Below, piece after piece: positions 25,897-39,228 of a DNA stretch of 64,000 nt (position 1 is its first letter; each line of letters begins with the position of its first letter). Position numbers and translations under genes: made by a program. Under the pieces are notes generated by a model. The model saw only the letters and a program-made list of their open reading frames with translations. It made no database searches and had not been told where the DNA came from. Source of the stretch: Escherichia phage Mimir124; sequence record PQ310662.1; one strand, given 5' to 3'.

Positions 25897-26107
25897 TATC
25901 GTGAAGGGTTCTGTCAGAATCCTTTGAGATAGGAACTCCTATCATAACCTTTCTTAACTTAATCTTTGCCGTATGGCACTGACGCTAGGGGTGGCCCCCC
26001 ATCCGTCAGACAGACTATTTTAAGAATGGGTTATCTCAGAAAATGTAAAGCAACATTCGGGTTAATCAATGGCCTCTCCTATAGGGGCCATTTCTGAGTC
26101 TTAGGCT

Positions 26108-26135
26108 ATATCCCAAAGGTTAGTATCTTTGGGAT
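26108..26135 (+). repeat. perfect 10-bp inverted repeat (hairpin) with 8-nt loop
   Basis: TATCCCAAAG-gttagtat-CTTTGGGATA. Confidence 0.6.
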
Positions 26136-26577
26136 AAGGCTTCAGATCCCTTATCAAACTAGCTGCTCAATGTTGAGCATATTAATCAACCAAGCCCAAT
26201 AAGGGGGCGGGAGTTTAATGCCGGTAAGCATAAGCCTATCCGTCTACAACATCGAACTGTTAGATCTTACATGCAATATAGGGTATAAAGGGAGGACTCG
26301 TCCCCTCCCTCCTATTATGAACTATCGGAGAGTGCATTAGTTGATTAGCTGTGGAAGGTAGGCCGATGTCCACGAGCATGGCCCAGAGCTAGTGTACTCC
26401 CCGATAGTTTTCGTAGCGATTATGCGGTTTTTTAGAAACGAACCAATAACATAAATGCAAACGAAGAAGCGTATCTGATGGTCGCCTAACAGCGTAACCT
26501 CAGTCAGGAGTGAGTCGTCCTGATTATCAAACGACCGTGGAGTTCTCCCGTCCATGTATTAGAAACGGGGGACCAAT

Positions 26578-26701
26578 TACCAGTTGCACGAGATGGCTTG
26601 ACATGTTCAAGTTTGGACTAAGTGTGACACCGCTAGATTGGAGGGCTGCTGCGGTAAGCTATAGACTCCAACCGGAGGTTCGAATCCTTCACTGGTAACC
26701 A
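26578..26701 (+). ncRNA. tRNA-like element: perfect 7-bp acceptor-type helix plus canonical T-arm and encoded CCA, but about 121 nt long (non-canonical)
   Basis: TACCAGT (26578-84) pairs ACTGGTA (26691-97); T-arm GGAGG-TTCGAAT-CCTTC; discriminator A then CCA; interior cannot be folded into a standard cloverleaf by hand. Confidence 0.3.
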
Positions 26702-26777
26702 ATTCAAAGTAGCACTGTATCTTTAAATGTTTCCCGGCATTCAAAGAACCCACCGTGACAGTGCTACTCTGAATTGG
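26699..26777 (+). repeat. long inverted repeat: 19-bp stem with one A/C mismatch and 41-nt loop
   Basis: CCAATTCAAAGTAGCACTG (26699-26717) pairs CAGTGCTACTCTGAATTGG (26759-26777); starts at the CCA of the upstream tRNA-like element. Confidence 0.55.
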
Positions 26778-26805
26778 AAGAATTAAGACGGGTCTGGTTG
26801 AAGTA

Positions 26806-26899
26806 GATGGGGTTCGATTACCTCCGGTGGAGTAATCCACTAGCGTGCTTGGTGCACGAATAAGACTTAGTACTGGTGGTTCGATTCCATCCCCCGTTA
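26806..26899 (+). ncRNA. second tRNA-like element (T-arm and acceptor-type pairing present, cloverleaf unresolved, about 94 nt)
   Basis: T-arm GGTGG-TTCGATT-CCATC, 3' strand CCCCGTT pairs GATGGGG at 26806-12 with G-U pairs; interior has 4- and 5-nt hairpin loops, not a canonical anticodon arm. Confidence 0.2.
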
Positions 26900-27093
26900 C
26901 CTGAAGTCGCCAGGTACTTATGGCAAACGGGTAGTAACGAACTAGTCATTCGTCAAACGCCCACCCAATTATGAGTCAGCAAGAACGCCTTCACTTAAAC
27001 TTAAACAAAAAAGCTTAACGCAATAATTATGTAGGGGTATGTAAGGATTGCGAAGAAGGAGCCAGTTAGAGCCTGGCATGACTCACCTATTAT

Positions 27094-27167
27094 GTCCACT
27101 TAGCTTAGACTGGGAAAGCAACCGACTAATAATCGGAAGGTCACTGGTTCAAATCCAGTAGTGGATA
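27094..27167 (+). tRNA. tRNA, canonical cloverleaf; anticodon reads AAT (Ile-type, unusual A34)
   Basis: Acceptor GTCCACT/AGTGGAT (one G-U), D-stem GCTT/AAGC with GG in D-loop, anticodon stem ACCGA/TCGG(A) with loop CTAATAA, T-arm ACTGG-TTCAAAT-CCAGT; 74 nt, CCA not encoded. Confidence 0.6.
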
Positions 27168-27402
27168 CTTATTCAGCAGTAACATAGTCCTGATTGCATA
27201 GCACTCTAAAGACAACACTGGTAAGACAGTCCAGTGGCTGCTAATGTATTGTTATTCCCCTCGACGGGAATTTCGCTAGTGAAGGTAACACTTAAAAATC
27301 CAAACCTACGTCTTACTACTATCGGGCTATCAACCCACGGTCGCTTAACCCTGTAGTGATAGTAGTTTGACGGCCTGCCTCGTTGACTGCGTTAAAGTCA
27401 CT

Positions 27403-27439
27403 AAGTCCCTCGGAGCCGTCACTCTGGGGGACTTTTTTA
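27403..27439 (+). terminator. putative terminator closing the ORF-poor region
   Basis: AAGTCCC...GGGGACTT stem with long loop followed by TTTTTTATTT. Confidence 0.4.
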
Positions 27440-27609
27440 TTTGAGAACTGTTTATTGGACGATTCATATGATTGACCTAATCTTAACCCCGTATGCCTAT
27501 GAGGTAACGGATAACCGAGGACGTAAGTCTTTGGTGTTTGCAGGTAGCGTAGCCTATAACAACGCAGTCATGTTTAAATACAAACTTAAACCACTTTATG
27601 AGGCTAATA

Positions 27610-27990
27610 ATGGCAACAGTAAGTAAAGAATCAATCGAAGCTAAGATTAAGAGCGTTTACTATTTCAATGGTGCTGATGCAGTAAAGACTGCATTCGTTA
27701 ACCCTTCTGCACTTCCGGCAGACGATTTGGCTAACCTGAGCCTGGTAACCTACTGTATTATCATCCTGGAAAACGGATTCAAAGTTGAAGGTGTATCTGC
27801 CTGTATTGACCCAACCATCTATGATGAACAAAAAGGCCGTCAGTATGCATATGAAAATGCATTCAATAAGATTTGGGAAATAGAGGGTTACCTGCTACGT
27901 CAGGCATTGCATGAGAAAGAGGAGACTACTAAGGCTCTGGCTTCCTTTGCAGAAAACAACACCTGTGATGGTGGTGGTTGCACCATTTAA
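27610..27990 (+). CDS. conserved phage protein, possibly N4 gp49-like family
   Basis: 126 aa from ATG 27610 (longest ORF starts 27598); sits shortly upstream of the giant RNAP gene; family assignment is from memory of a Pfam family name and is unverified. Confidence 0.35.
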   Translation: MATVSKESIEAKIKSVYYFNGADAVKTAFVNPSALPADDLANLSLVTYCIIILENGFKVEGVSACIDPTIYDEQKGRQYAYENAFNKIWEIEGYLLRQALHEKEETTKALASFAENNTCDGGGCTI

Positions 27991-28109
27991 CAAACAGGTG
28001 TAAGGTAGTTTTTACCGAAAGGTACTGAACTACCCAACATGTGGTAAGGCTCTAGAAGCCAAAACAAAACAAGCCCTCCTAGTGAGGGCTTTATCATTTG
28101 AGGTAGTTA

Positions 28110-28878: not shown

Positions 28879-31800
28879 TTAATTTACCAGGTTCATCCAA
28901 GGGTTAAGGTTGTGAGCACGAAGCCCCTGACCAAAGCCCCATGAGTAATCCAGACTACCCTTAGCAGCAATGCTAAAGATGTTGTCCTGAATAGGTAAGC
29001 CAACGTTACCAAACATGGTAGGAGTTGGAGCCAACATAGCCATAGCAGCATGCACTGGGTTATTACGAATCATGGACACTGCAACTTTTGCAGAACGAAT
29101 CTTAAAGTTGTAGAACCACATTAAACCAACACTTTCCATATACCCACGGAAGCGACCAGGTAAACGATCATAGTTAATGAACTCTTCCGTTACACGTCCT
29201 AGTGCTTCTTCACGAGTCTTACCTTTACGCTGGGTCAATTCATCATAGATGATTGCTTTAGCGATAAAGTCAGAGTACTCAACGGTCTTCTGGATACCCT
29301 GGAATAAAGCAGTATCCTTAGTGATAAGTGCATAACGTCCGGCAGTACGTACTGACTTAGGTAGCTTATCTGCCAATTTACTCATGTACTCTTGAAGTTT
29401 ACCTTCGGTAATAAGGATGTCATCACGACCGATACCAGCGTCTGCAATTGAAGAGAACTCACCAGCTTCTAACAGAGGCCAGATACTCATACGCTTATGG
29501 CTATCAGTAATGGACTGAATCTCAGCCTTAAGTTTACGAATCTGGTTCGGGTTAGTAGCTGCACGTAATTCTGCTTCTGCATCTACCTGACGCAGACGAG
29601 ACTTCAGGTACTGGTTAATCTCAGCAGTTTTCTGTGGAATGCTCTTAGCAATGTTCTTAACCGGTACGCCACGGGCAACCATCTGGTAAAGGTTAGCCAA
29701 GAAGTTAACAGCAGGTACGACTACTGACTTAACTACAATCAGAGTCTTGGCTTCTTTAACTAAGTTCTGAACCAGGTTCTCACCACCCATAGTGTACTTA
29801 TAAGCACGGTTGCCAAATACACCCAGCATAGCTTTCTTGAAGGTATCCAGGGTTTCCGGGGACCAACGAGAATTACCAGACCAGGCATCACCAACAGAAG
29901 CTGCACGATAACCAAGTGCATCATTCAGCATGTCACGACGCACCCACAGTTCGCCATCACCAAACAGGCTTTCTGCTTTCCGTCGAGTTTCACTGTTCAT
30001 CAGCTTAAGTGCATCAGCAGTTACTGGGTCCAGTTTAGAACCAAGAAGGTTCACATACTGGGACTTGTTAGAGGCAGACATCTTTATGTCGTTCTCATAC
30101 ATACTATGCAGGTTCTCAATCAGCATATCGTTGAAACGCTGTGCCTTAGCCTCTTCCACCTGACGCCCACGCCATACACCAATTGCACGTGCAAGATGGT
30201 TCTCACCTTCAATATGCTTCAGCATGTTAGGGTCAATGGATTGCTCATAAGCAACTACATTACCTTTATCATCATATACAGGCAGGAGTGGTTCATTACC
30301 ACGTTCACCACGAGCCAGTGCTTTAGTGATACGGTCTACGGAAGGCTTGTCAGTGATACGACCTGCTACCATGGAACCCATCGTAAAGCCTGTACCCAGG
30401 TCTACACCACCAGCAGTATTACGAACGTTCTGTAGGATACCCTGTGAGAATGGAGCCTGTGCCTGTACTGGTGCAAAGTAATAACTACGTGCCGGACCAC
30501 GGTTAGCAGAACTACCTTGATAAGTACCCAGACGTACATAGGACTTCTCAATCAAATCAGCAAACTGACTATCTTCAGCAACAATCAGATTAACGCCCTG
30601 TTTAGTCTCACTAGGGATATGCCCTTTGTACTGGTTCAGGGTTGCACGCATATCAGATTTGGCTTTAGCCATTTCATCTTTACGCTGACCAACCAGATAA
30701 GAAGTAGCAAAGTCCATTCCCTCAACTTCTGATTGAGCCAGTGAAGATAACATCTCACGGTCGGACTTATTCATTGCTTCCAGTGCATACAGGGTAATCA
30801 GTTTATCCAGTTGAGCTACATCTACAGTAGAACGAGCAGCCTGACGTTCACCCAGCATACGAGAGATTGCAGTAGCATTACGCAGCAGGTTATTACCGAC
30901 TGTACCATTAATCATGTACTGAGCCAGTTGCTTAGATTTACGACTAATAAGAGGCCAGTTACGACCAGCTTGTTTTTGCAAATCTGCTTCCAGCTTATTC
31001 ACTTCACGGTCAACAATCTTCTGGTCAGTCAGCAGGTCACGGATTTCAGCCAGAGACATAGTGTCACGCAGAACAGCTAAGTCAGTTTTACCCATACCAG
31101 TGTGCATTGCTTTCCACTCATCTTTAGTCAGCTTACGGCTGAACTTAGATGCGATAGTGGTGGGCAGGTGTTCACGAAATTGTTGACGGTCTGCTTGTAC
31201 CTGTGCACGAACTGCTTTAATTAAATCATATACAGAAGCATTACTCTTAGTACGACCAGTTAGGTCATTAACTAAGTCATGGAAAGGTTGCCATACCTTG
31301 CCTTGGTTCATTGCAGCCATAACACCTTCAGCTACGATTACACCATTCTTCTCTGTAGCAATGGCAGCTACCAGTTGTGCAGCATGAGCAGCACCTTTAA
31401 CCAACGGGTTCTTGGTATTAGCTGCAACTTCACGAGCACTTTCTAAAGCACGGGTGGACAGTGCATCAATAGAATCCACCAGATACTGGTTAGCACGGTC
31501 GATAGCATTACCACTAGGTATAGCAACGGAATCATAAAATGACTGTGCATTGAGGCTGGTCTGCATGATTGTCTGAGCCAGTGCATCCGTCCCTTCCTGC
31601 ACATTGGTGGCTTTGGTATCACCTGTTACACGAGCATTCAGGCTAGACATTGCAGCAGTACCGATGTTAGTCAGCATTGCATCAATGGTATTACCAGATT
31701 TCTTATCTGCTTTCATAACAGGAATGTTAGCCAGTACATTACGTACTTCTTCACTAACCATTGCCAGACCAACAAAGGTAGGCAATAAGGAAGAACGACC

Positions 31801-34800
31801 CTGTGCATCAAACTCAATGTTGTTAGCACCCATGATGGTATCAAACTTCTGTTGAGCATAGTAACGGTCAGCAGGGTTAGTGCTATCAGGGTCAGCCATG
31901 AATGCTTCAACGGTCAGGTTCTTAGTGACGTGTGCGTAGTATTCCTGTGCACGAGAAAGAGCAGCCGGACTAATAGCAGCTTCAGTAGCCAAAGCAGCAA
32001 CAATGTTAGTGAACAGTCGCTGTTCCTGCATATTCATAGTGAAGCCATGAGCCTGAACATCACGAGTTACTTTAGTTGCATTCACTACTGCATCAGAGAA
32101 CTTACCCTTACGAATTACTTGCTGTACCGGTTCTGAACCAATGTAGTTAGTAATCAGCTTATCAAAGGTCTGCCCCAACTCTTCCAGACGGGTATTGTCA
32201 CCGTATGCTTTGTTATGGAACAGAGTAGTGTCTTTGGCTACAGCAGCAGTAGGAGCCTGCCCACGCATAACTACAGAAGAGTTAAACAGTAAGCCAGAGA
32301 ACATATCATCTGCGTTAGCAGGGGCTTTCTTACGACCAAATACCAGACGTTTGATTGCTTCATATACAGCCTGAACCATGGCCTTAAGTGCAGTGGTTTT
32401 CTTCTGCTTACCAATCAATTCACGGTTGGTTAAACCCCATGCCATGTACTCATTCAGTGCAGCAGCTTTAGCCATTGCTGGTTCAATAAAGCCATTAGAC
32501 AAGTGACCATTAATGGTATTGAGTGCATCAGCATATGCTTCACGTACTGCCGGGGATTCATCCTTAACATCCAGAGTACGGAACTGGTTCATCAGGTCTT
32601 CAATATTCTGGACTGCTTCATTAGAAGTACCTTCATAGTGAGCCAGTACAGATTCAAAAGTAGAAGCATGTACCAATTCATGAACCAGAGTCTCTAAGGA
32701 AGGAGTAACTAAGTAGATGGTCTTATCTTCAAAGTTAGTCCAGCCATATGCATTACCAGCTTCAGCAGCTTCAATATCTTCCGGTGCTGGGCGAGTAATG
32801 TTCTTCTCAATAGCATAAGCATCCAGTTGAGCAGGAGTACCATAAACAACCTTGTAGTCTTTAGCAGCAAGGGATTTCTGTACTTCTTTCAATACTGCTT
32901 GCTGTTCTGGGGACATCTCTTTAGCCAGCTTAGTGATAGCAGTATTGGACAGCAGACGTACACCGGACTTCAGTACACGACCTACCTTCTCCATTGCTGG
33001 TACTTCTTTCACTGGTTCTGCTTTAGCAGCACGTACTGCATCACGACGCTTATTTAATTCAGCATCAAACAGCTCGTTCAGCTTAGCTACTTGTTGGTCT
33101 ACAGTCAGACCTTCCAGAGAAATTTTACCGTTGTTCACATAAGGAGCACCTACAGCAGCCATCTGGTCAACAGTAGTCTGTACCTGGTTCATTACTTTGT
33201 GGCGAATATCTACACCCAGAGCAATGTTACGCAGATTACGTTCAATCTGTTCAGCACCAATACGTAACAGGTCATCAGTAGCACCTTCACGTTGGTCATA
33301 TTCCAGAGCAGATTTAGCGATAGCCTGTTTGGTTTCATCAGACAGTTTGCTGAAGTCTACGTTCTTCATGAACTTAGCGAAGGAGTCATAAACATTCTTG
33401 ATAGGGTTTCCTTGCCAAGAAGTATATACAGCCTCGTTAGCTTTACGACTTGCATCAGTAATGTCATTAATACCAATGTTCATACCATCAAAGATTTTCA
33501 GGGTATTCTTCGGAGCACCCTTCATAGTAGAAAGAGTCTGCATCATCATGCCATCACCAGTACCGATGGTCATAAATGGAATACCTGCAACACCTGCCTG
33601 TGAAGGAGCATAGATGCTCATTGGCACACGCATACGGTCATCTAAGTTGGTAGCCAGTACTTGGTTAGCAACATCAGTGTTCTCACTACCAGCAATGTAG
33701 AAAGTCTGTGAGCCAGTCTCAATCATTGGAGCCAGCGGAGATAAGCTATTCTGAATTTCATTCAGTTCTTTCTGCGTTAAGAAATCACCTTTCTTCCATG
33801 TTGAGTCTTTTTCTTTTTCTGCAAGTTTAGCCTGTACTGCCTGTTGGAACATATCCTGCAATACCAGAGACTGAATCTGGGTAGCCTTCTGTAAGTTCTC
33901 AGTAGAATGCATCAGACCTTCACCAACAGTATTTCGAATACCAGTACGCATTGGTTCAACGAACAGGTGAAGCATGTTCTCTTGTAAGTTCTTCAGGGCA
34001 TTACCAGATACAGTAAACTTCTGTGGGTCTAACTTACCAGTCAGAGCACCTTCTACCTGCTGAATAGATAACTCACCCTTACGCATAACTGGAACATTGC
34101 CAGTCAGTGCTTCCATAGAAGTAAGGAAAGTATCCAGCATAGCCTGAGCATCAGCCTCAGATGCAGCCTCCTTACCAAACATTGCCATAGCCGGGGAAAT
34201 ACTAGGGTCAGCAGCACGAGCTTGCAGAACGTCGCTGAAGCGTTCGTAGATGGTATCAGTAATTGCACTAACCATCTTGCCAGCAATACCACGAGCACCA
34301 GAACCATAGATGGTAATGGTTAGTGGGTTTTTAGCGATACCACGTTTCAGGTCCAGTGTACCGTCTTCATTCAGGTTAAAGTCTTTGATGAACAGGTCCA
34401 TTAACTTCTGGAGATGATTCATCTGGCTCATAACAGGAACGTTGTTACGGTAAGTACTACGTAATTCACCAAGTGCTTGTTGCAGACCATTAGTAGATGC
34501 TTCATACAGGTCAACACTGTCATCCTGTGAGCGATGCTCGTTCATAGTCTTACCAGCTTTACCGAAGAACAAACCACCCTTAGCAGTATTCTTAATCCAG
34601 TCTGGAGTGAACTTACCACCGGTCATTAATACCATTGCGTTGATTGGGCCATTGGTTACACCATCAGCTTCAACGTACAGTGGGGTATTAAAATTGGCAC
34701 GGTCATCGCTATTCAGGTAACGGGCATATTCCATCAGAGCCATGAGAGCTACGAATGATTTATCACCACCCAAAGAGGTCTTAAGAATATCCACTGCATC

Positions 34801-37800
34801 AACTGGTAAGTAACCAGACTTATCAAACTCAACCATCATATCAACAGCAGGTTTCAGGTTACCTTCCAGAGCTTTGGTCAGCTTTTCAGACATAGCTTCA
34901 CGGGACATGTTATGTACCTTGATGCCTAATGCCTGAGCCAGACCTAACTGAAAGTCAGAGAACGCTTGGCTGTTTTCATTACTCAAGTCAATAGTAGAGA
35001 AGGTTGGCAGAATTGCTTCACGAACCAGCTTACTGGATTGTGGGTTATTCTTACCAAGCATCTGCATACGACCTACACGGGTCATGTTGTAACCATAGTG
35101 AATAGGAGTATCCAGTCCATTCTCCTGTTCCTGAACCTGATTGATTACCCCAAACAAGGAATCGTATGCCATAGACACGGACAGGTTCTTACATTCCAAT
35201 GATTTAGCAGTGTTTACGTTCAGTAGTTCAGGATTAATCGTACCAGCACCCATCAGTTCCAGAATGTTGTCACGACCCAATGCTTCATAGAAATTAACCA
35301 TCGGCATGTGTACACGGAACTCAGTAGCCTGTTCTGCTTTAAGAGCAGCTTTCTGTTCTGGAGTATTCTTGACAGCCGGGTTACGTAACTGAGTTTGAGC
35401 CACGGAAGGAATATCATCCCCGAAGTACATTTTCTCTTCCGGTTCTACGAGGACAGCTTCCTCAATAGCAGTAGGGAAATTGTTAATGGCATCGTTATCA
35501 TCCAGCTTCTCAATGGTGTACAGACCTACAGTCTTATTGGAGGCTGGGTCAATTTCAGACACATCCAGCATAGACTCTTTAACTTCACCCATCTCAATAA
35601 AGGAAGACAGAATCTCTGTAGCCATTGCCATTGGGATACCCTTGGTATAACCCAGTGGTGCATTAGGATTACGATTCAAACCCCAATAGGATTCAATCTT
35701 TTGAGCCAGTGAGTTAGTAGCTTCAACCAGGGTCTGAGCATTCTCGAAGTCAGCCAGAATACCTTCAGGTAACAGGGATGCTTCTACACCAGTAATAGCA
35801 GCTACATCTTTCATGTCTTTAATGGCAGCATTCTGTGTAGCAGTCAGTCGCCATTGCAAACCAGCAAGTACAGCAGTCTCTAGCAACTGGTCATTGAACT
35901 TAAAGGTGTCACCATCCTTCTCAACGATATTCAGCAGTTTACCACCCACCCAACGGTTAGCTTCAGTACCTTCTGCAAAACGTTTACCAACATTCTTGTT
36001 AGCAAGGAACTTAGCTAGACGGTCAGAAAGAGTAGTCTTCAGGGTTTCACCAAAATCAAACAAGTCCTGATAACGCTTAATCACATCACTTGTGAGAGCG
36101 TTATTTTCTTTTTGAGTAAATGCTTCAAAACGAGCAACAGAAGACAGTGCTTTCTTAACATCAGTCAAAGGAGACTCAGAACCAATGGTACGAGACTTAG
36201 GTTCTTCCGGTAGGGTAAATGCTTTCAGGAACTGGTTCGGTGTCTTTTCATTGTTATAGACAGGGAACACTGTTTCCATTTCTGTTTTGGTTTCGACTAC
36301 TTCCTGGGTAGTATCTACTGTTTCAGACTTAGTAGTAGAGACTTCTTCTGTTTTTGGGCTAGTCTCCATAGTAGGAGCAGTCTTATTTTCTACCACTGGT
36401 TTAGCTTTAGGCTGTACAGTAGTAGTGTCCTCTTGCACTGGTGCAGGAGTTTCATCAACCTGATTCACTGGTTCATTGGTCTGTTGGGATTGAGCAGCGT
36501 CAAGATTGCCCTGACGGAACTCTTTAACTACCTGGGCAGCAGGCTTGTCCAGACGTGAATCCAATGGGGTAACTTTCACATGAGAAACATTAAGCTCCGG
36601 GTAAGCCGTAGCAAGTGCGTTAGCAATATCAGCTACGGTTTTGGCCTCCAGTCCTACTTGCTGGGCAAACTTAACAGACTTGGTATCGTAAGGATTGACA
36701 CCGAGTCCAGTACGACTACGTACCCATTCACGGGAAGGCGAGAGAGCCTGATAATGAACAGACTTATTCTTATCCGCATTCCCAGAAATCAGATGCTCAT
36801 TCAACGCTCCGACCTTATTCTGCATGTGCTGGGCGAACTTCATAAAGTCGCTCAGATAAGCGGAGGCCAAATCGAAGTTACCAGAGTTATACGCAGAACG
36901 AATGCGTTTCGCATGTTGCAACGCAGAGTACTGTCCTTCGTTAGAACGAGACTCATCGGTTTTAATTTGTTTACTAACAATGTCTTGAGGACGTAAGCCC
37001 AGTTCTTCTGCTTTAGCGTCGAACTCACGTGCACCCTGTAACAAGGCAGCAGCAGATTGCAGGGCAGCACGTTGATGATTCCCCAGTGTAATCTTACCTT
37101 CACTTGCATGTTTCAGAACCATGTTCACTGAATCTGCATCCAGTACTTCTGGGGATACATCAGCAGCCATAGCAATGTTGTTTGCTTGGGCTTGATTAGC
37201 TTCTTCAGTAGCTTTCAGCTTACCTGCTTCAGCCTGTTCCTGAATCATGGAATGGATAGCACGGTATGCACGGAGTACTTTAGGTGTATTCTGTACGTTA
37301 GCCATCAGGCCAGAGAACTGGTCTACGATAGTAGCAGCAGGGGAACCTTGTTCCAGATTAGCCAGAGCACCTGGGTCACGGTTAATGAAGCTATCCATAG
37401 ACATAATGTTGTCATACATCTGGATTGCAGCTTCCATTTGAACGTTAGGATCTTCAGCAGTATTAACCAGGTCAGCCATCTTCTGAATAGCTTCTACACG
37501 GTTAGTGGAACCAGAAACAGCTTCACGGATTACCAGGTTAGCTTGTTCCAACTCTACTGGGTCGAACTTCATTGCCTGAGTTAAGTCAGCAGCATACTGA
37601 GTAGCAGCAGCTTTCTCTTCTGGAGTGATATCCATTGCATCTACTGCTTCCTGTACAGTTGCTTGTGCCTGCTCTGCCTGAGCAGCAGCTTCCTGTGCAG
37701 CAGCGTTAACCGTAGCATCAGCTACAGGGGATGCTTGTTCATTACGCTTAGCAACTTCTTCCCCACGTTGAACCAGGATGTTAGTAAGAGGAGATGCAGC

Positions 37801-39228
37801 TTTTGCTAATGTTTTACCAACCAGAGAAGCACCAGCCAGAGTAGTACGTAGAGCAGGACCAGCAGAAGCACCAACTGCTTTAACAGTTGCACCTGGAGCT
37901 TGAGCAACCCCAGCACTACCGAAGCCATAAAGTGCACCAAGACCTGCTTGCTCACCAACCCCTTTGAGAGTGTCACGGGATGCATCAACATTTTCCTTGA
38001 TTGCACGGTTCTGGGCATACTGACCGAAGCCGGATTGAATACCCTCTTCTACAGTTTCACGGAGCATGTTAGAACCAGCACCAGCCAGTGAACCTACCTT
38101 AAGTGGGTTAAGTTCAAAACGAGATACCAGTGGGCCGGTAGCAGCAGCAACTGGAGCAGTTAAGCCAGCAGCAATAATACCTGTTTCAGATGCAGTCTGA
38201 CGACGTGCTTCATCAGGGGATAATCCATCAGCAATATGTTGTTGGTAAACAGGAGACTTACTTGCCAAATCTTGATGGGACATCTTCATGATTTCAGAAG
38301 CAGTCTGTTGGTATGCACCACCAGCTTCCATACCACCAATTGCAATAGCAGGTGCAGCAACACGACCAGCAGACAATGCAACCTGTGCAGGGCGTGAACC
38401 TAACTCAGCAGCTAAGGTAATACCCTTAACAGCTTTATCACCACCTACCATTACTTTACCAAGTGCAGATACACCACGGATAAGTGGACCACCAGTAAAG
38501 AGGGAACCAACACCTTCACTCAGTCCGTCGGAAGCAGCCATACCATTATCAAGTGTATTAGCAACAGAATCGAAAGCATCACGACCAATGCGAGACAAGG
38601 AGGCAACCAAATCGCTCTCCCCATTTTTGACGTCTTGTTCATAGAGTTTCTGGTTCTTTTGAGCAGAAATCTGGTTCTGATTCTGAACAACTTTACGGGT
38701 AGCATTCAGTGCATCAGATTGTAAATTGTGTACACCTTCATTCAACCAATCCATCCCGGAAGCAATGGATGCCCCGGCATTATCATTGACCAGACCTGTG
38801 CCAAGAGCAGCAATGCCCCCAAGGGTATTAGCAACACCAAGACCAACACCAGAAAGAGTATCGCCAAATGCTTCTGCGTTAGTACGTTGTTTAGATAAGT
38901 CCTGACGTACAACATCAGCAGCATTAGCTCGGCTATTAAGAATTTGTAGACCTTGCTCATTACCGTACTTATTAATGATTTCTAATGGAGAGGCTTGAGT
39001 GAAATCTGCCTGAAGTGAACCCGGTTCGAATGCACCGATTCCAAGATTACCTACTCGTCCAGTCTGGAGATTGTAAGCGTTCTCTGGGGTTAATTGGAAA
39101 GGGCTTTGCCCTTGTGCAGCTTGCTTCTGAGAGGTTGCAGTAGAGACATCGACTTGCTTAGCAGTAGTGATGCTGTCTGCGAAACCTGCCAGACGGTCAA
39201 ATGTTGACATAGCATGTTTCCTGTTCAA
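28879..39228 (-). CDS. giant virion-encapsidated RNA polymerase (N4 vRNAP-like)
   Basis: Single uninterrupted 3449-aa ORF, a size class essentially unique to N4-like phage virion RNAP; position at start of the leftward structural block. Confidence 0.75.
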   Translation of the reverse strand: MNRKHAMSTFDRLAGFADSITTAKQVDVSTATSQKQAAQGQSPFQLTPENAYNLQTGRVGNLGIGAFEPGSLQADFTQASPLEIINKYGNEQGLQILNSRANAADVVRQDLSKQRTNAEAFGDTLSGVGLGVANTLGGIAALGTGLVNDNAGASIASGMDWLNEGVHNLQSDALNATRKVVQNQNQISAQKNQKLYEQDVKNGESDLVASLSRIGRDAFDSVANTLDNGMAASDGLSEGVGSLFTGGPLIRGVSALGKVMVGGDKAVKGITLAAELGSRPAQVALSAGRVAAPAIAIGGMEAGGAYQQTASEIMKMSHQDLASKSPVYQQHIADGLSPDEARRQTASETGIIAAGLTAPVAAATGPLVSRFELNPLKVGSLAGAGSNMLRETVEEGIQSGFGQYAQNRAIKENVDASRDTLKGVGEQAGLGALYGFGSAGVAQAPGATVKAVGASAGPALRTTLAGASLVGKTLAKAASPLTNILVQRGEEVAKRNEQASPVADATVNAAAQEAAAQAEQAQATVQEAVDAMDITPEEKAAATQYAADLTQAMKFDPVELEQANLVIREAVSGSTNRVEAIQKMADLVNTAEDPNVQMEAAIQMYDNIMSMDSFINRDPGALANLEQGSPAATIVDQFSGLMANVQNTPKVLRAYRAIHSMIQEQAEAGKLKATEEANQAQANNIAMAADVSPEVLDADSVNMVLKHASEGKITLGNHQRAALQSAAALLQGAREFDAKAEELGLRPQDIVSKQIKTDESRSNEGQYSALQHAKRIRSAYNSGNFDLASAYLSDFMKFAQHMQNKVGALNEHLISGNADKNKSVHYQALSPSREWVRSRTGLGVNPYDTKSVKFAQQVGLEAKTVADIANALATAYPELNVSHVKVTPLDSRLDKPAAQVVKEFRQGNLDAAQSQQTNEPVNQVDETPAPVQEDTTTVQPKAKPVVENKTAPTMETSPKTEEVSTTKSETVDTTQEVVETKTEMETVFPVYNNEKTPNQFLKAFTLPEEPKSRTIGSESPLTDVKKALSSVARFEAFTQKENNALTSDVIKRYQDLFDFGETLKTTLSDRLAKFLANKNVGKRFAEGTEANRWVGGKLLNIVEKDGDTFKFNDQLLETAVLAGLQWRLTATQNAAIKDMKDVAAITGVEASLLPEGILADFENAQTLVEATNSLAQKIESYWGLNRNPNAPLGYTKGIPMAMATEILSSFIEMGEVKESMLDVSEIDPASNKTVGLYTIEKLDDNDAINNFPTAIEEAVLVEPEEKMYFGDDIPSVAQTQLRNPAVKNTPEQKAALKAEQATEFRVHMPMVNFYEALGRDNILELMGAGTINPELLNVNTAKSLECKNLSVSMAYDSLFGVINQVQEQENGLDTPIHYGYNMTRVGRMQMLGKNNPQSSKLVREAILPTFSTIDLSNENSQAFSDFQLGLAQALGIKVHNMSREAMSEKLTKALEGNLKPAVDMMVEFDKSGYLPVDAVDILKTSLGGDKSFVALMALMEYARYLNSDDRANFNTPLYVEADGVTNGPINAMVLMTGGKFTPDWIKNTAKGGLFFGKAGKTMNEHRSQDDSVDLYEASTNGLQQALGELRSTYRNNVPVMSQMNHLQKLMDLFIKDFNLNEDGTLDLKRGIAKNPLTITIYGSGARGIAGKMVSAITDTIYERFSDVLQARAADPSISPAMAMFGKEAASEADAQAMLDTFLTSMEALTGNVPVMRKGELSIQQVEGALTGKLDPQKFTVSGNALKNLQENMLHLFVEPMRTGIRNTVGEGLMHSTENLQKATQIQSLVLQDMFQQAVQAKLAEKEKDSTWKKGDFLTQKELNEIQNSLSPLAPMIETGSQTFYIAGSENTDVANQVLATNLDDRMRVPMSIYAPSQAGVAGIPFMTIGTGDGMMMQTLSTMKGAPKNTLKIFDGMNIGINDITDASRKANEAVYTSWQGNPIKNVYDSFAKFMKNVDFSKLSDETKQAIAKSALEYDQREGATDDLLRIGAEQIERNLRNIALGVDIRHKVMNQVQTTVDQMAAVGAPYVNNGKISLEGLTVDQQVAKLNELFDAELNKRRDAVRAAKAEPVKEVPAMEKVGRVLKSGVRLLSNTAITKLAKEMSPEQQAVLKEVQKSLAAKDYKVVYGTPAQLDAYAIEKNITRPAPEDIEAAEAGNAYGWTNFEDKTIYLVTPSLETLVHELVHASTFESVLAHYEGTSNEAVQNIEDLMNQFRTLDVKDESPAVREAYADALNTINGHLSNGFIEPAMAKAAALNEYMAWGLTNRELIGKQKKTTALKAMVQAVYEAIKRLVFGRKKAPANADDMFSGLLFNSSVVMRGQAPTAAVAKDTTLFHNKAYGDNTRLEELGQTFDKLITNYIGSEPVQQVIRKGKFSDAVVNATKVTRDVQAHGFTMNMQEQRLFTNIVAALATEAAISPAALSRAQEYYAHVTKNLTVEAFMADPDSTNPADRYYAQQKFDTIMGANNIEFDAQGRSSLLPTFVGLAMVSEEVRNVLANIPVMKADKKSGNTIDAMLTNIGTAAMSSLNARVTGDTKATNVQEGTDALAQTIMQTSLNAQSFYDSVAIPSGNAIDRANQYLVDSIDALSTRALESAREVAANTKNPLVKGAAHAAQLVAAIATEKNGVIVAEGVMAAMNQGKVWQPFHDLVNDLTGRTKSNASVYDLIKAVRAQVQADRQQFREHLPTTIASKFSRKLTKDEWKAMHTGMGKTDLAVLRDTMSLAEIRDLLTDQKIVDREVNKLEADLQKQAGRNWPLISRKSKQLAQYMINGTVGNNLLRNATAISRMLGERQAARSTVDVAQLDKLITLYALEAMNKSDREMLSSLAQSEVEGMDFATSYLVGQRKDEMAKAKSDMRATLNQYKGHIPSETKQGVNLIVAEDSQFADLIEKSYVRLGTYQGSSANRGPARSYYFAPVQAQAPFSQGILQNVRNTAGGVDLGTGFTMGSMVAGRITDKPSVDRITKALARGERGNEPLLPVYDDKGNVVAYEQSIDPNMLKHIEGENHLARAIGVWRGRQVEEAKAQRFNDMLIENLHSMYENDIKMSASNKSQYVNLLGSKLDPVTADALKLMNSETRRKAESLFGDGELWVRRDMLNDALGYRAASVGDAWSGNSRWSPETLDTFKKAMLGVFGNRAYKYTMGGENLVQNLVKEAKTLIVVKSVVVPAVNFLANLYQMVARGVPVKNIAKSIPQKTAEINQYLKSRLRQVDAEAELRAATNPNQIRKLKAEIQSITDSHKRMSIWPLLEAGEFSSIADAGIGRDDILITEGKLQEYMSKLADKLPKSVRTAGRYALITKDTALFQGIQKTVEYSDFIAKAIIYDELTQRKGKTREEALGRVTEEFINYDRLPGRFRGYMESVGLMWFYNFKIRSAKVAVSMIRNNPVHAAMAMLAPTPTMFGNVGLPIQDNIFSIAAKGSLDYSWGFGQGLRAHNLNPWMNLVN

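Follow-up and report, generated by a model that had tools for sequence, protein, structure and literature searches.

An over-long tRNA-like RNA and a separable long hairpin in the RNA island of an N4-like coliphage

Introduction

What is an RNA that ends exactly as a tRNA does, is too long to be one, and whose encoded CCA is at the same time the foot of a long hairpin? The question is raised by positions 26578-26777 of the window, which here means the whole 64,000-nucleotide stretch of Escherichia phage Mimir124 DNA that was analysed (PQ310662.1). An initial annotation had recognized a tRNA-like end followed by an inverted repeat, and proposed an intron-containing tRNA, an otherwise expanded tRNA, a tRNA-like processing signal or a tRNA mimic coupled to a hairpin. 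Searches of the full-text literature turned up neither a tRNA-like RNA nor a tmRNA-like element described from N4-like phages. The answer favored here, with roughly even confidence, is that the locus holds two separable RNA modules, a non-decoding tRNA mimic and a double-stranded processing stem, set in a mosaic tRNA island.

The RNA Island of the Window

Judged by its sequence, the window is an N4-like coliphage of the Gamaleyavirus group, whose members are 93-97% identical to it. The tRNA-like RNA (TLS) lies inside an ORF-poor stretch of roughly 1.7 kb, on the strand of the flanking genes and of a tRNA-Ile found downstream in the same island. The landmarks of this island are as follows.

26572..26578 and again 26698-26704, + strand: direct repeat ACCAATT (family D2), whose copies bracket the TLS cassette
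26787..26901, + strand: TLS2, a second non-canonical tRNA-like element with acceptor GACGGG/CCCGUU and T arm GGUGG-UUCGAUU-CCAUC, ending in ACC and then U
27094..27168, + strand: tRNA-Ile(AAU), the sole canonical tRNA of the window (ARAGORN default settings; Rfam tRNA model, 62.6 bits)
27403..27441, + strand: strong intrinsic terminator, a 13-bp stem followed by TTTTTATTT, closing the RNA island just before a gp48-like ORF

The annotation of phage PhAPEC7 places a terminator at the position equivalent to 27403-27441, and the acceptor of TLS2 covaries with the GGCAAG/CUUGCC of phage KP8. The island is a string of tRNA and tRNA-like cassettes, each with a CCA end followed by A/U-rich sequence, and long hairpins stand directly 3' of other tRNA and tRNA-like ends in these islands. 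The direct repeat marks a junction in this string: TLS is missing from phage phi G17 exactly between the two ACCAATT copies, and extra cassettes are inserted at the same junction in other phages. The non-coding gap of N4-like phages is an array of cassettes, namely tRNAs, tRNA mimics and long stems whose interiors are exchangeable, and these cassettes are reshuffled at the CCA-AUU trailers.

A host origin of the interval was rejected, as complete E. coli genomes gave no match to 26570-26790, and comparison with E. coli ssrA gave no meaningful similarity beyond GCAAACGA. Degenerate tRNA-like pieces also occur in the island: 27281-27302 is a decayed copy of a T arm, and some odd "tRNAs" defy assignment by ARAGORN.

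Anatomy of the tRNA-like RNA

26578..26701, + strand: TLS, a 124-nt tRNA-like RNA from first acceptor base to encoded CCA (sequence, covariation and covariance model R1)
26578..26584, + strand: 5' strand of the acceptor stem, UACCAGU, forming 7 bp with ACUGGUA at 26691-26697
26586..26625, + strand: D-side arm, a 4-bp stem (26586-89/26622-25) around a 7-bp hairpin (26595-26601/26607-26613) with the loop CAUGU
26638..26671, + strand: 6-bp stem UUGGAG/CUCCAA with a 22-nt loop (26644-26665), 2 nt before the T arm
26674..26690, + strand: T arm GGAGG-UUCGAAU-CCUUC (sequence; the T stem covaries)
26691..26701, + strand: 3' strand of the acceptor stem, discriminator A73 (26698) and encoded CCA (26699-26701) (sequence)

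The outline given by the initial annotation stands. The 7-bp acceptor pairing of TACCAGT (26578-84) with ACTGGTA (26691-97) is perfect, the T arm (GGAGG-TTCGAAT-CCTTC, 26674-90) is canonical and is followed by A73 at 26698 and an encoded CCA at 26699-26701, and the element is indeed over-long, measuring 124 nt from its first acceptor base to the CCA. It therefore carries the 7-bp acceptor stem, the TTCRANN-type T-loop and the discriminator base plus CCA of a tRNA. An anticodon stem-loop (5 bp and a 7-nt loop with U33) and a normal D arm cannot be drawn, and neither ARAGORN in its default mode nor the Rfam tRNA model (RF00005; gathering threshold and E <= 10) matches 26578-26701. The 6-bp stem sits where class II tRNAs have their long variable arm. 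A candidate pseudoknot joins ACCGC (26629-33) with GCGGU (26651-55); its sole variant is an A to G change that keeps the pair, and the homologue in phage N4 has GUGG at this site, where pairing is still possible through G-U.

Such an arrangement is hard to obtain by chance. A pattern consisting of a 5-bp T arm with a TTCRANN loop, then 7 nt, a single base and CCA, in which the 7 nt find a perfect Watson-Crick partner (7 bp) no more than 160 nt upstream, occurs once in the window, at TLS, and in none of 300 first-order Markov sequences of 64 kb scanned on both strands. Folding energy, one of the checks first suggested for this locus, gives a divided result: the interval including the long hairpin, I1, folds better than its shuffles (z = -3.24), whereas TLS alone folds no better than its own (z = -0.21). 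The case for the structure of TLS thus rests on covariation, not on folding energy.

Covariation and Conservation

The sample comprises 15 distinct copies from E. coli and Klebsiella phages, close relatives belonging to two genera. The paired state is kept in 99.8% of cells, with one of 435 unpaired; the observed covariation score was reached by none of 500 shuffles, and slid controls were 28-48% paired. Five pairs, distributed among acceptor stem, T stem and internal hairpin, show compensatory changes, a count that stems from only a few independent events. Three of these pairs are in the acceptor stem, where 3-70 and 4-69 change from C-G to U-A and 5-68 from A-U to G-C, with wobble intermediates in phages Bp4 and KKP 3715. 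The T-arm pair 51-63 changes from A-U to G-C in three phages, and pair 21-33 of the D-side hairpin changes from U-A to C-G in the Klebsiella phages, while pairs 18-36 and 24-30 of that hairpin change on one side and remain paired. The 4-bp stem (26586-89/26622-25) and the 6-bp stem UUGGAG/CUCCAA are both invariant among the copies and are to be read as candidate helices. The covariance analysis named at the outset as a check for a tRNA-like fold is in this way answered in favor of one, and the proposal of an otherwise expanded tRNA or tRNA mimic is backed by compensatory changes in its acceptor stem, T arm and internal hairpin.

The unpaired positions are almost invariant. The 22-nt loop is unchanged save for its first two bases, and most differences in TLS between the E. 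coli and Klebsiella phages lie in the covarying helices, whereas the flanking DNA shows no more than about 80-85% identity. Model R1 scores 154-160 bits at 17 loci, and an exact-pattern scan of IMG/VR for the TLS loop returned only the same two genera. The loop (GCUGCGGUAA) was also considered as a mimic of the 530 loop of 16S rRNA (GCCGCGGUAA), and this was rejected, as the resemblance is not significant.

These observations bear on two readings in which TLS would be a tRNA gone astray. According to the first, TLS is a decaying pseudogene of a class II, Ser-like tRNA that has suffered insertions, and the neighboring hairpin is incidental. Its T arm and part of its D region do resemble the tRNA-Ser of N4, the island does hold degenerate tRNA-like pieces (27281-27302), and TLS is absent from some relatives. 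However, compensatory changes in three helices, a single unpaired cell among 435 and near-invariant loops across two genera imply purifying selection on the fold, not decay, and make the pseudogene quite improbable.

According to the second, TLS is a true tRNA interrupted by an intron and able to decode once spliced. With a lowered threshold and introns allowed, ARAGORN does offer a tRNA-Thr(GGT) with a 45-nt intron. In this model the anticodon stem has only 3 bp, the D stem is mismatched and the intron splits the anticodon; bases 18-24 fall in the D loop and bases 30-36 in the anticodon stem, although covariation pairs them with each other in the hairpin at 26595-26613. That conflict rules out the relaxed model, and the default run of ARAGORN and the Rfam tRNA model yield nothing in its place. 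Furthermore, the introns of bacterial and phage tRNA genes are to our knowledge all of group I, and 45 nt is far too short for a group I intron. The intron-containing tRNA, one of the identities first proposed, is thus extremely improbable.

The compensatory changes in three helices and the almost invariant loops argue that TLS, as read from its sequence, is a selected structured RNA, neither a decaying pseudogene nor an intron-containing tRNA. It is nonetheless dispensable in nature, since it is absent from phi G17, 24-32N and L008. Nor is conservation of the CCA absolute: phage L009 has TCA in its place, together with a compensating G to A change in the right arm of I1.

Ancestry and Look-alikes of TLS

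The best non-self match of model R1 is the tRNA-Ser(UGA) of phage N4, at 29.6 bits. The T arm and its flanking bases are identical in the two at 19 of 20 positions, and both share a 7-bp acceptor stem, U8 and the D-region motif GAGA.GGC. Each also places an extra arm immediately 5' of the T arm and ends in A73 and an encoded CCA, with an A/U-rich trailer behind it. In contrast to a class II tRNA, TLS is without an anticodon stem-loop, the loop of its "variable arm" is 22 nt long, and a 7-bp hairpin is inserted in its D region along with a 12-nt linker. From this sequence likeness, TLS most likely originated from a phage gene for a class II (Ser-like) tRNA. A further relative is found inside the long hairpin of N4, whose interior has in common with TLS the ACCGC linker, the UGYUGYGGWAARCUA loop and the T arm.

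The architecture of TLS also recurs in other phages. A family of tRNA-like elements of 136-137 nt (UCCAGGG.../CCCUGGA-ACCA) in other N4-like contigs has the same four-helix layout. The species 1 and 2 RNAs of phage T4, described decades ago, are likewise too long for tRNAs (rnaC, 139 nt; rnaD, 119 nt) and are encoded at the end of a phage tRNA gene cluster, on the tRNA strand. In species 1 RNA a terminal stem and a long 5'-side arm come first; a 10-bp arm then directly precedes the T arm CCGGG-UUCGAAU-CCCGG, and the 3' strand follows, which is the four-helix layout of TLS. The likeness is architectural only: run on the T4 tRNA cluster, R1 matched tRNA-Leu alone and neither rnaC nor rnaD, so that no homology of sequence or profile was found. 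The two phages belong to different families (Straboviridae for T4, Schitoviridae here), and the rnaC gene, in contrast to TLS, has no encoded CCA. T4 rnaC is a verified late RNA, and like rnaD it has a function that is still unknown (PMC9697503).

The Long Hairpin and Its Interior

26699..26777, + strand: long hairpin I1, a 20-bp stem (26699-26718/26758-26777) with the CCA in its foot and a 39-nt interior

The inverted repeat was first given as 19 bp with a 41-nt loop. Its single A/C mismatch holds, and the arms, 95% complementary, are 20 nt long with 39 nt between them. Its left arm starts at 26699, so the CCA does fall within it, as first noted. Among 17 sequences, 9 of the 20 pairs of the stem have changed on both sides and 92% of cells are paired, while pair 26707/26769 is unpaired in 15. 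At least six unrelated versions of the interior exist, of roughly 36-82 nt. Those of Bas96/L009 and of N4 contain a T arm, and the homologous long stem of N4 reaches about 35 bp. A scan of the + strand for intrinsic terminators did not call I1; it is not an intrinsic terminator because no T run follows its stem, which is followed by AAGAATTAAG.

Is this hairpin part of the tRNA-like RNA? The proposal of a tRNA mimic coupled to a hairpin holds in part. In Gamaleyavirus the CCA is in every case the foot of I1, and the TCA of L009 is compensated within the stem. I1 is kept, however, in all loci examined from Gamaleyavirus and Kaypoctavirus (19 distinct sequences), among them five without TLS (those of phi G17, pSb-1, PW8, 24-32N and L008), and in the Klebsiella phages another cassette intervenes between the two. 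I1 is a module separable from TLS.

The repeat could instead act as DNA, as a recombination hotspot, a cruciform or a cassette boundary, its conserved arms serving as homology for the exchange of interiors and neighboring cassettes. The interiors are swapped wholesale while the arms stay, and the breakpoints of the mosaic fall repeatedly at the edges of the arms, near 26689-97 and 26785. The stem contains G-U and A-C mismatches in similar numbers (32 and 28), which leaves no clear signature of the RNA strand and does not separate selection on RNA from selection on DNA. Homology needs no complementarity between arms, though, and the nine pairs changed on both sides are still paired. Long stems with a fixed mismatch and a variable interior are also found at several places in the island and in phages that are unrelated, each time on the tRNA strand. 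These arguments render a purely DNA-level role very doubtful.

If I1 acts as RNA, its closest counterparts are the processing stems of rRNA operons and the RNase III sites of phage T7, both established double-stranded processing sites. Like I1 they are double-stranded RNAs of about 20 bp with an internal mismatch that bracket a segment of a polycistronic precursor of stable RNA. I1 differs in that it encloses an interior that is short, variable and apparently dispensable, and its cleavage is a prediction. The bacterial Y RNA YrlA offers a second parallel, as it carries a tRNA-like domain on a long stem. In N4 and Bas96 the long stem is similarly closed by 5' and 3' flanks and bears a tRNA-like domain that includes a T arm and lacks a free CCA. 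The long stem here continues the acceptor stem, however, whereas in YrlA it continues the anticodon stem, and the interior in the window has lost the T arm. The Rfam Y RNA and YrlA models found no match in 26000-27400 at E <= 10.

The order of a non-decoding viral tRNA-like element and a long hairpin directly after it recalls the TMERs of murine gammaherpesvirus 68, in which a tRNA-like element is fused to pre-miRNA hairpins and separated from them by tRNA 3'-processing. TMERs belong to a eukaryotic setting of Pol III, tRNase Z and Dicer, where CCA is added after cleavage. The CCA of TLS, in contrast, is encoded and itself lies in the hairpin stem, and we know of no small-RNA pathway of the TMER kind in E. 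coli.

An ssrA-like Tag Module Upstream

Upstream of TLS lies an unannotated element that recalls the messenger part of tmRNA.

26320..26409, + strand: long hairpin I2 (arms 26320-40/26389-409), immediately upstream of the tag module and outside TLS
26405..26576, + strand: unannotated ssrA-like tag module, comprising a conserved leader (26405-56), tag, pseudoknot, hairpin and ACCA
26457-86, + strand: tag ANEEAYLMVA* (GCA..GCC), with stop TAA at 26487-89 and codon-level conservation
26504-09/26518-23 and 26514-17/26532-35, + strand: pseudoknot of the tag module, supported by covariation
26545-51/26565-71, + strand: covarying 3' hairpin of the tag module, followed by ACCA at 26572-75

At 26457-26489, outside TLS, a startless frame begins from a GCA resume codon, is flanked by pseudoknots and encodes a tag with a hydrophobic C-terminus ending in AA or VA, as in tmRNA. 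Versions of the tag include ANEEAYLMVA, ANDDVVLMAA and ANNETYLMVA, and synonymous changes occur among them (GCA GCC, GCT GCT and GCG GCG; CTG and TTG). Double stops occur, an in-frame TAG lies upstream, and there is no start codon. The Rfam models tmRNA_permuted and beta_tmRNA match the region weakly, at 23-33 bits (threshold of tmRNA_permuted, 47), and they score through the tag sequence only, the tRNA-domain part of tmRNA_permuted being deleted in the alignment. ARAGORN reports no tmRNA in the region.

Similarity to the module extends to 329 phage records and to 141 E. coli genomes; direct reading of the tag itself covers five unrelated lineages only. These, confirmed by eye, are Schitoviridae, Drexlerviridae-like (Webervirus-like) phages, Ackermannviridae, P1-like phages and a lambdoid prophage. 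In Webervirus and P7 only ordinary tRNAs lie downstream of the module, and in a lambdoid prophage it is accompanied by no tRNA at all. As far as sequence tells, the module is widespread in enterobacterial phages; it has no recognizable tRNA-like domain of its own.

Phage tmRNAs are known, as are forms that consist of the tRNA domain without a CDS (PMC9004378, PMC11915505). With the tRNA-like domain of tmRNA, TLS shares the top half made of acceptor stem and T arm without an anticodon arm, and its place beside an ssrA-like tag frame with pseudoknots. It differs in that its acceptor stem closes locally, leaving the tag upstream of a self-closed element and outside the tRNA-like domain. The order of tag and TLS fits neither the standard nor the permuted form of a tmRNA gene, the tag module occurs widely without TLS, and position 3-70 of TLS is C3-G70, U3-A70 or U3-G70, never G3:U70. 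TLS was rejected as the tRNA-like domain of a one-piece or permuted tmRNA, for which a search of the island found no upstream 5' acceptor strand, G3:U70 pair or T arm inside or before I2.

Hairpin I2, whose stem covaries strongly around a hypervariable interior, was tried as a permuted acceptor stem with a discarded intervening loop, a reading that its interior makes attractive. It was rejected because no T arm precedes it, its left arm has no CCA and its loop in phage 7-11 is only 3 nt. None of the other tRNA-like 3' ends of the island has U70 opposite G3.

TLS and the tag module might still be the two pieces of a previously unrecognized phage kind of trans-translation, with TLS as its acceptor piece and the module (26405-26576, 89 nt upstream) as its mRNA-like piece. 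The codon-level conservation of the tag and the weak tmRNA matches of 23-33 bits favor this; a tag of such kind needs a charged tRNA-like domain. TLS is also found only in tag-bearing genomes (17 of 17 fetched loci), and an over-long tRNA-like RNA directly follows the module in the window, in the Klebsiella phages and in L042. The messenger would then be a free piece with a 10-codon degron tag, widespread in enterobacterial phages and prophages, and would be served in trans by non-alanine acceptor RNAs such as TLS or by host components. Several observations weigh against it. Every tmRNA known to us carries a G3:U70 pair for alanylation, and no tRNA-like element of the island has one. Other cassettes, amounting to 200-340 nt, lie between the module and TLS in many Gamaleyavirus genomes, three tag-bearing genomes (phi G17, 24-32N and L008) have no TLS, and elsewhere the module stands with ordinary tRNAs only (Webervirus, P7) or with none (the lambdoid prophage). 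No special complementarity was found between TLS and the tag RNA, their best duplex being weaker than in shuffled controls. Finally, TLS closes its own acceptor stem, so RNase P would cut it away from the tag. A two-piece system is on this evidence rather improbable.

A Model of Two RNA Modules

In the favored model, the first module (26578-26701, + strand) would be a 124-nt, non-decoding tRNA mimic matured by tRNA-processing enzymes. It would keep the complete top half of a tRNA, a 7-bp acceptor stem stacked on a 5-bp T stem with its loop UUCGAAU and then A73 and CCA, while the D and anticodon arms would be replaced by a hairpin-bearing stem and a 6-bp arm with the invariant 22-nt loop. TLS would be transcribed from the + strand in a long RNA that extends from the genes upstream as far as the terminator at 27403-27441. 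RNase P would cut between 26577 and 26578, the 3' end would be trimmed back to the encoded CCA, and the product would accumulate as a small stable RNA, like T4 species 1 RNA. The second module (26699-26777) would hold the CCA-AUU trailer in its 20-bp duplex in the precursor and act as an RNase III-type processing stem around a dispensable, fast-evolving interior, which in the window may be the decayed remnant of a tRNA-like insert still present in N4 and Bas96. Transcription, cleavage by RNase P and RNase III, and stability are read here from the anatomy of the two elements.

Could TLS serve as punctuation alone? The processing signal suggested by the initial annotation would in that case be its whole role: the top half would draw RNase P and 3' enzymes to cut the island transcript, freeing the tag RNA upstream and the hairpin RNA downstream, with no function for the free RNA. 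The perfect acceptor/T-arm minihelix with its encoded CCA suits this role, as do the string of tRNA and tRNA-like cassettes with CCA and then A/U-rich sequence, and the loss of TLS or its replacement by other tRNA-like cassettes at the same junction. Yet punctuation needs the top half only, whereas conservation in TLS is strongest in the 22-nt loop, the 12-nt linker and the D-side loops, its stems being free to covary, and the N4 homologue has the same linker and loop motifs in a different stem context. The signal therefore keeps a place among the candidate roles and leaves the invariant loops unexplained; as the sole role of TLS, it is possible but unlikely. In the two-module model the invariant loops would recognize one specific partner, which may be another RNA or a tRNA-binding protein of host or phage, so that TLS would act in trans as a tRNA mimic and not only as punctuation. 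Comparison with the tag RNA and with the 16S 530 loop revealed no such partner.

TLS is a second example of an over-long phage tRNA-like RNA, unrelated in sequence to the species 1 and 2 RNAs of T4. It offers clear covariation, invariant loops and natural variants by presence and absence, among which phi G17 is a clean natural deletion. Such variants make the question of its function genetically tractable in well-studied coliphages. The tag module, a side finding of this analysis, may outweigh TLS in importance. If the module is translated, it challenges the view that the tag template must be part of tmRNA, and if two-piece trans-translation is true, the phage could re-tag or re-route stalled host ribosomes.

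Comparative structure of the TLS

Every feature that the initial annotation had listed for this stretch is found in the sequence where it was placed; the inverted repeat is likewise present, with arms of 20 nt rather than 19 that are 95% complementary and 39 nt apart. The combination of a T arm, a perfect 7-bp acceptor partner and an NCCA end, which marks the 124-nt tRNA-like RNA (TLS, 26578-26701, plus strand), occurs once in the window and in none of 300 Markov-1 random 64-kb sequences. The folding energy of the TLS alone is unremarkable (z = -0.21) and becomes significant only when the adjoining hairpin is included (z = -3.24).

BLAST with the interval returns whole or partial matches in 53 phage records, all of them Gamaleyavirus or Klebsiella Kaypoctavirus, and 15 distinct TLS sequences from these two genera were aligned. 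The five-helix structure is paired in 99.8% of 435 cells, and five pairs have changed on both sides with pairing kept (acceptor 3-70, 4-69 and 5-68; hairpin 21-33; T stem 51-63), a signal of few independent substitutions in the two genera sampled. Wobble intermediates are present, three helices or interactions are invariant throughout the sample, the covariation score is reached by 0 of 500 shuffles, and slid controls are only 28-48% paired. RNAalifold, run independently, gives the same helices, differing in that positions 6-8 pair with 49-51 and the last two acceptor pairs are left unclosed. The compensatory pairs support the tRNA-like fold.

The unpaired regions (D-side loops, 12-nt linker, 22-nt loop of the 6-bp arm, and T loop) are nearly invariant in both genera, whereas the adjoining DNA is only ~80-85% identical. 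Covarying helices and invariant loops amid diverged DNA form the pattern of a functional RNA, one whose loops, to judge by their conservation, are read in a sequence-specific manner. A five-pair pseudoknot between ACCGC of the linker and GCGGU of the big loop is possible, and its sole variant retains pairing. The TLS fold, which has a complete tRNA top half and loops constrained in sequence, is under selection.

The TLS is not a tRNA. In the whole window, the one tRNA reported by Rfam and by default ARAGORN is tRNA-Ile(AAU) at 27094-27168, and a permissive Rfam scan of 26000-27400 gives no match on 26578-26701. With a lowered threshold and introns allowed, ARAGORN proposes a tRNA-Thr(GGU) with a 45-nt intron; this model has a 3-bp anticodon stem, places the intron within the anticodon and is contradicted by the comparative data. 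The suggestion of an intron-containing tRNA is therefore abandoned.

R1, the covariance model of the TLS, gives 154-160 bits at every one of the 17 TLS-bearing loci, and its best match elsewhere, at 29.6 bits, is the genuine tRNA-Ser(UGA) of phage N4. In the T arm and its flanks the two agree at 19 of 20 positions; the D region is partly shared, and the 6-bp arm of the TLS occupies the position of the long variable arm in class II tRNAs. This match and this position suggest that the TLS derives from a class II phage tRNA and would have lost its anticodon arm.

The long hairpin

All Gamaleyavirus and Kaypoctavirus loci examined (19 distinct sequences) have the arms of the long hairpin (26699-26777), and the hairpin stands without the TLS in five of them: phi G17, pSb-1, PW8, 24-32N and the comparison locus L008. 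In its stem, 92% of cells are paired, and nine of the 20 pairs carry changes in both partners. Position 26707/26769, A.C in the window, is unpaired in 15 of 17 sequences and thus looks like a deliberate internal mismatch. The stem foot is the CCA of whatever tRNA-like element precedes the hairpin; in comparison locus L009, UCA stands in place of CCA and is matched by a G-to-A change at the partner position of the right arm, so that pairing is kept and the CCA is sacrificed. This long stem with its CCA foot is selected separately from the TLS. It is not a terminator, since no T run follows it. G-U and A-C mismatches occur at equal frequency, and the active strand therefore cannot be read from the stem itself.

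The interior is unconserved: its versions, at least six and unrelated to one another, are roughly 36-82 nt long. Those of Bas96 and L009 carry their own T arm (GUGAGG-UUCGAGU-CCUCAC) on a stem prolonging the long helix, and in N4 a homologous stem of about 35 bp surrounds TLS-like sequence in which the TLS linker motif, the loop motif UGYUGYGGWAARCUA and the T arm are all present. The window's interior retains only CCCGGnnUUCAAAG, a motif common to two other versions and probably a decayed T arm.

The same architecture, a stem of 15-21 bp, often with one fixed mismatch, recurs in the island and in unrelated phages. The enclosed interior is swapped wholesale among close relatives, and ranges from a 3-nt loop (phage 7-11) to more than 100 nt (ST4).

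Further stems of the recurring type
Window 25948-26029
Window 26099-26146
Window 26320-26409
Window 27309-27372
Comparison locus L061, 1705-1770
Comparison locus L061, 1955-2066

The RNA island and its cassettes

The phage belongs to the N4-like podophages, genus Gamaleyavirus (G7C-like), and PhAPEC7, PhAPEC5 and E20 are 93-97% identical to it over the 2.5 kb around the TLS and hairpin. Both elements fall in a stretch of ~1.7 kb that lacks long ORFs (roughly 25,900-27,600), with plus-strand genes upstream and a gp48-like ORF downstream. The TLS has the orientation of the flanking genes and the tRNA, and the island ends in a terminator.

27403-27441, plus strand: strong intrinsic terminator closing the island stretch
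28879-39228, minus strand: virion RNA polymerase, an ORF of 3,449 codons

With plus-strand genes to its left and the minus-strand polymerase gene to its right, the island ends a plus-strand block and adjoins a point of convergent transcription. Cumulative GC skew is maximal at about 26000-28000. Published annotations of relatives hold only scattered tRNA calls here, among them the odd Ile(AAT), Cys(ACA), Ala(CGC) and 'OTHER'.

Laying 30 related loci onto the window reveals recurrent breakpoints at about 26318, 26390, 26493, 26570-79, 26689-97, 26785, 26902-05, 27087-94 and beyond. The direct repeat ACCAATT lies on both sides of the TLS (26572-78 and 26698-704), phi G17 has lost exactly the segment between its two copies, and many relatives carry a further 200-340 nt of cassettes at the first copy, comprising a mini tRNA-like 'TLS-B' (65 nt) and a Cys(ACA)-like element. 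In each of the four real N4 tRNAs, AAT or AT comes after the terminal CCA. Cassettes are gained and lost, and the bracketing repeats, the exact phi G17 loss and these tRNA ends suggest that this probably occurs by recombination between CCA-plus-A/U trailers. Such trailers resemble RNase E cleavage sites.

The island and its relatives hold other tRNA-like elements.

Comparison locus L037 (phage N4), 2871-2935: TLS-B, with homologues in KP8, Bas96, ECBP1 and others
Window 26787-26901: second non-canonical tRNA-like element, acceptor GACGGG/CCCGUU

TLS-B (65-67 nt; UCCGGUG.../CGCCGGA-ACCA, T arm UCUGG-UUCGAGU-CCAGA) is common to N4, Kaypoctavirus and many Gamaleyavirus phages and absent from the window; a conserved hairpin, CCAGG-UGGAAUC-CCUGG, precedes it, and the KP8 annotation calls it 'tRNA-OTHER'. 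The acceptor of 26787-26901 covaries with GGCAAG/CUUGCC in KP8. In this element a T-arm-like hairpin takes the D position; the T arm proper is GGUGG-UUCGAUU-CCAUC, the 3' end is ACC then U instead of ACCA, and the score against Rfam tRNA-Sec is only 19 bits. The tRNA-Ile, the sole canonical tRNA of the window, has an A34 anticodon, which is uncommon in bacterial systems, pairs G1 with U72 as a wobble and lacks an encoded CCA. It is kept in most relatives, which additionally carry Cys(ACA), an 'Ala(CGC)' whose acceptor stem has 8 bp, and tRNA-like genes left unassigned by ARAGORN. A decayed copy of its T arm (27281-27302, 73% identical to 27136-27157) and the adjoining hairpin AUUCCC-CUCGAC-GGGAAU (27255-27275) are probably relics of another tRNA cassette.

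An ssrA-like tag module

Just upstream of the TLS is an Rfam permuted-tmRNA match, weak in the window and reaching 33 bits in relatives, which contains a tag frame.

26457-26489: GCA AAC GAA GAA GCG TAT CTG ATG GTC GCC TAA, reading ANEEAYLMVA and stop

The E. coli ssrA tag is ANDENYALAA. The frame, its 10-codon length and its stop are maintained in about 30 distinct sequences, with substitutions that are synonymous or conservative: Leu CTG/TTG, Val GTT/GTC/GTA, E to D and back, and final codons GCA GCC, GCT GCT, GCG GCG, GTC GCC or GTT GCT. Double stops are frequent, a start codon is lacking, and upstream a TAG stands in the same frame. Behind the tag come a pseudoknot and a hairpin, both covarying; the module as a whole spans 26405-26576, and ahead of it stands a long stem (26320-26409) that also covaries and whose interior is hypervariable.

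Similarity to the module, usually to the conserved leader and tag, extends to 329 phage records by BLAST. Tags were confirmed in a Webervirus-type Klebsiella siphophage (ANEEVYLAVA), Ackermannviridae Ag3 (ANDDVVLMAA, double stop), Salmonella phage 7-11 (ANDNAFRVAA) and P7 (ANDDLMMAAA). Matches to the query also exist in 141 of the 5,426 complete E. coli genomes; in the one whose tag was read, an O26:H11 lambdoid prophage carries it between the Q antiterminator and holin genes with no tRNA close by. In this prophage the tag core is flanked by two copies of one hairpin of the recurring type. Phage tmRNAs detectable by ARAGORN, and tmRNAs consisting of the tRNA-like domain alone, are known (PMC9004378; PMC11915505). 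The module is annotated in no record opened, and no description of the element was found in the searchable literature.

The most conserved leader motif, UAGUUUUCGU (26405-26414), is the perfect complement of ACGAAAACUA at E. coli ssrA 97-106, inside the host tmRNA tag codons (GAC GAA AAC UAC), and can likewise base-pair with ACGAAGA where the phage tag begins. The host match, 10 nt with E about 0.5 in the comparison, may be chance.

A split tmRNA, in which the TLS serves the tag, would account for the confinement of the TLS to tag-bearing genomes among the fetched loci and for its frequent position directly 3' of the module. It is nevertheless quite improbable: the TLS lacks the alanine identity pair, its acceptor stem is self-closed, other cassettes often separate it from the tag, three tag-bearing Gamaleyavirus genomes lack it, the module is widespread without it, and no special complementarity between the two RNAs was found. 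Nor was a G3:U70 tRNA-like domain found near the module in the loci examined.

Place among phage tRNA-like RNAs

Other N4-like contigs hold a distinct over-long family of 136-137 nt (UCCAGGG.../CCCUGGA-ACCA).

Comparison locus L010, 2739-2875
Comparison locus L042, 3712-3848, minus strand
Comparison locus L049, 6889-7024, minus strand

Its members have the four-helix layout of the TLS with extra length in the first arm. They also share U1-A72, A73 and CCA; their 5' arm is long, and next to the T arm stands a 7-bp arm capped by the 8-nt loop GUUCAUGG. T4 species 1 RNA (rnaC, 139 nt) also shares the four-helix layout and a canonical T arm, but it is not detected by R1, and the TLS is not homologous to the T4 examples. 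In 2022, both rnaC and rnaD were confirmed to be late RNAs of T4, 'of yet unknown functions' (PMC9697503).

The TLS would be transcribed within a long plus-strand RNA, cut by RNase P at 26577/26578 and matured at its 3' end to the encoded CCA, and the 20-bp stem would be cleaved in an RNase III-type manner. Pure cis punctuation, in which the TLS would act only as such a signal, is unlikely and, with the split tmRNA, is the main rival to a tRNA mimic of the T4 species 1 type acting in trans, a reading that we give an even chance. As such a mimic, the 124-nt RNA would accumulate and its loops would bind a specific partner. The TLS is a new, previously unannotated addition to the over-long tRNA-like stable RNAs of phage tRNA clusters.
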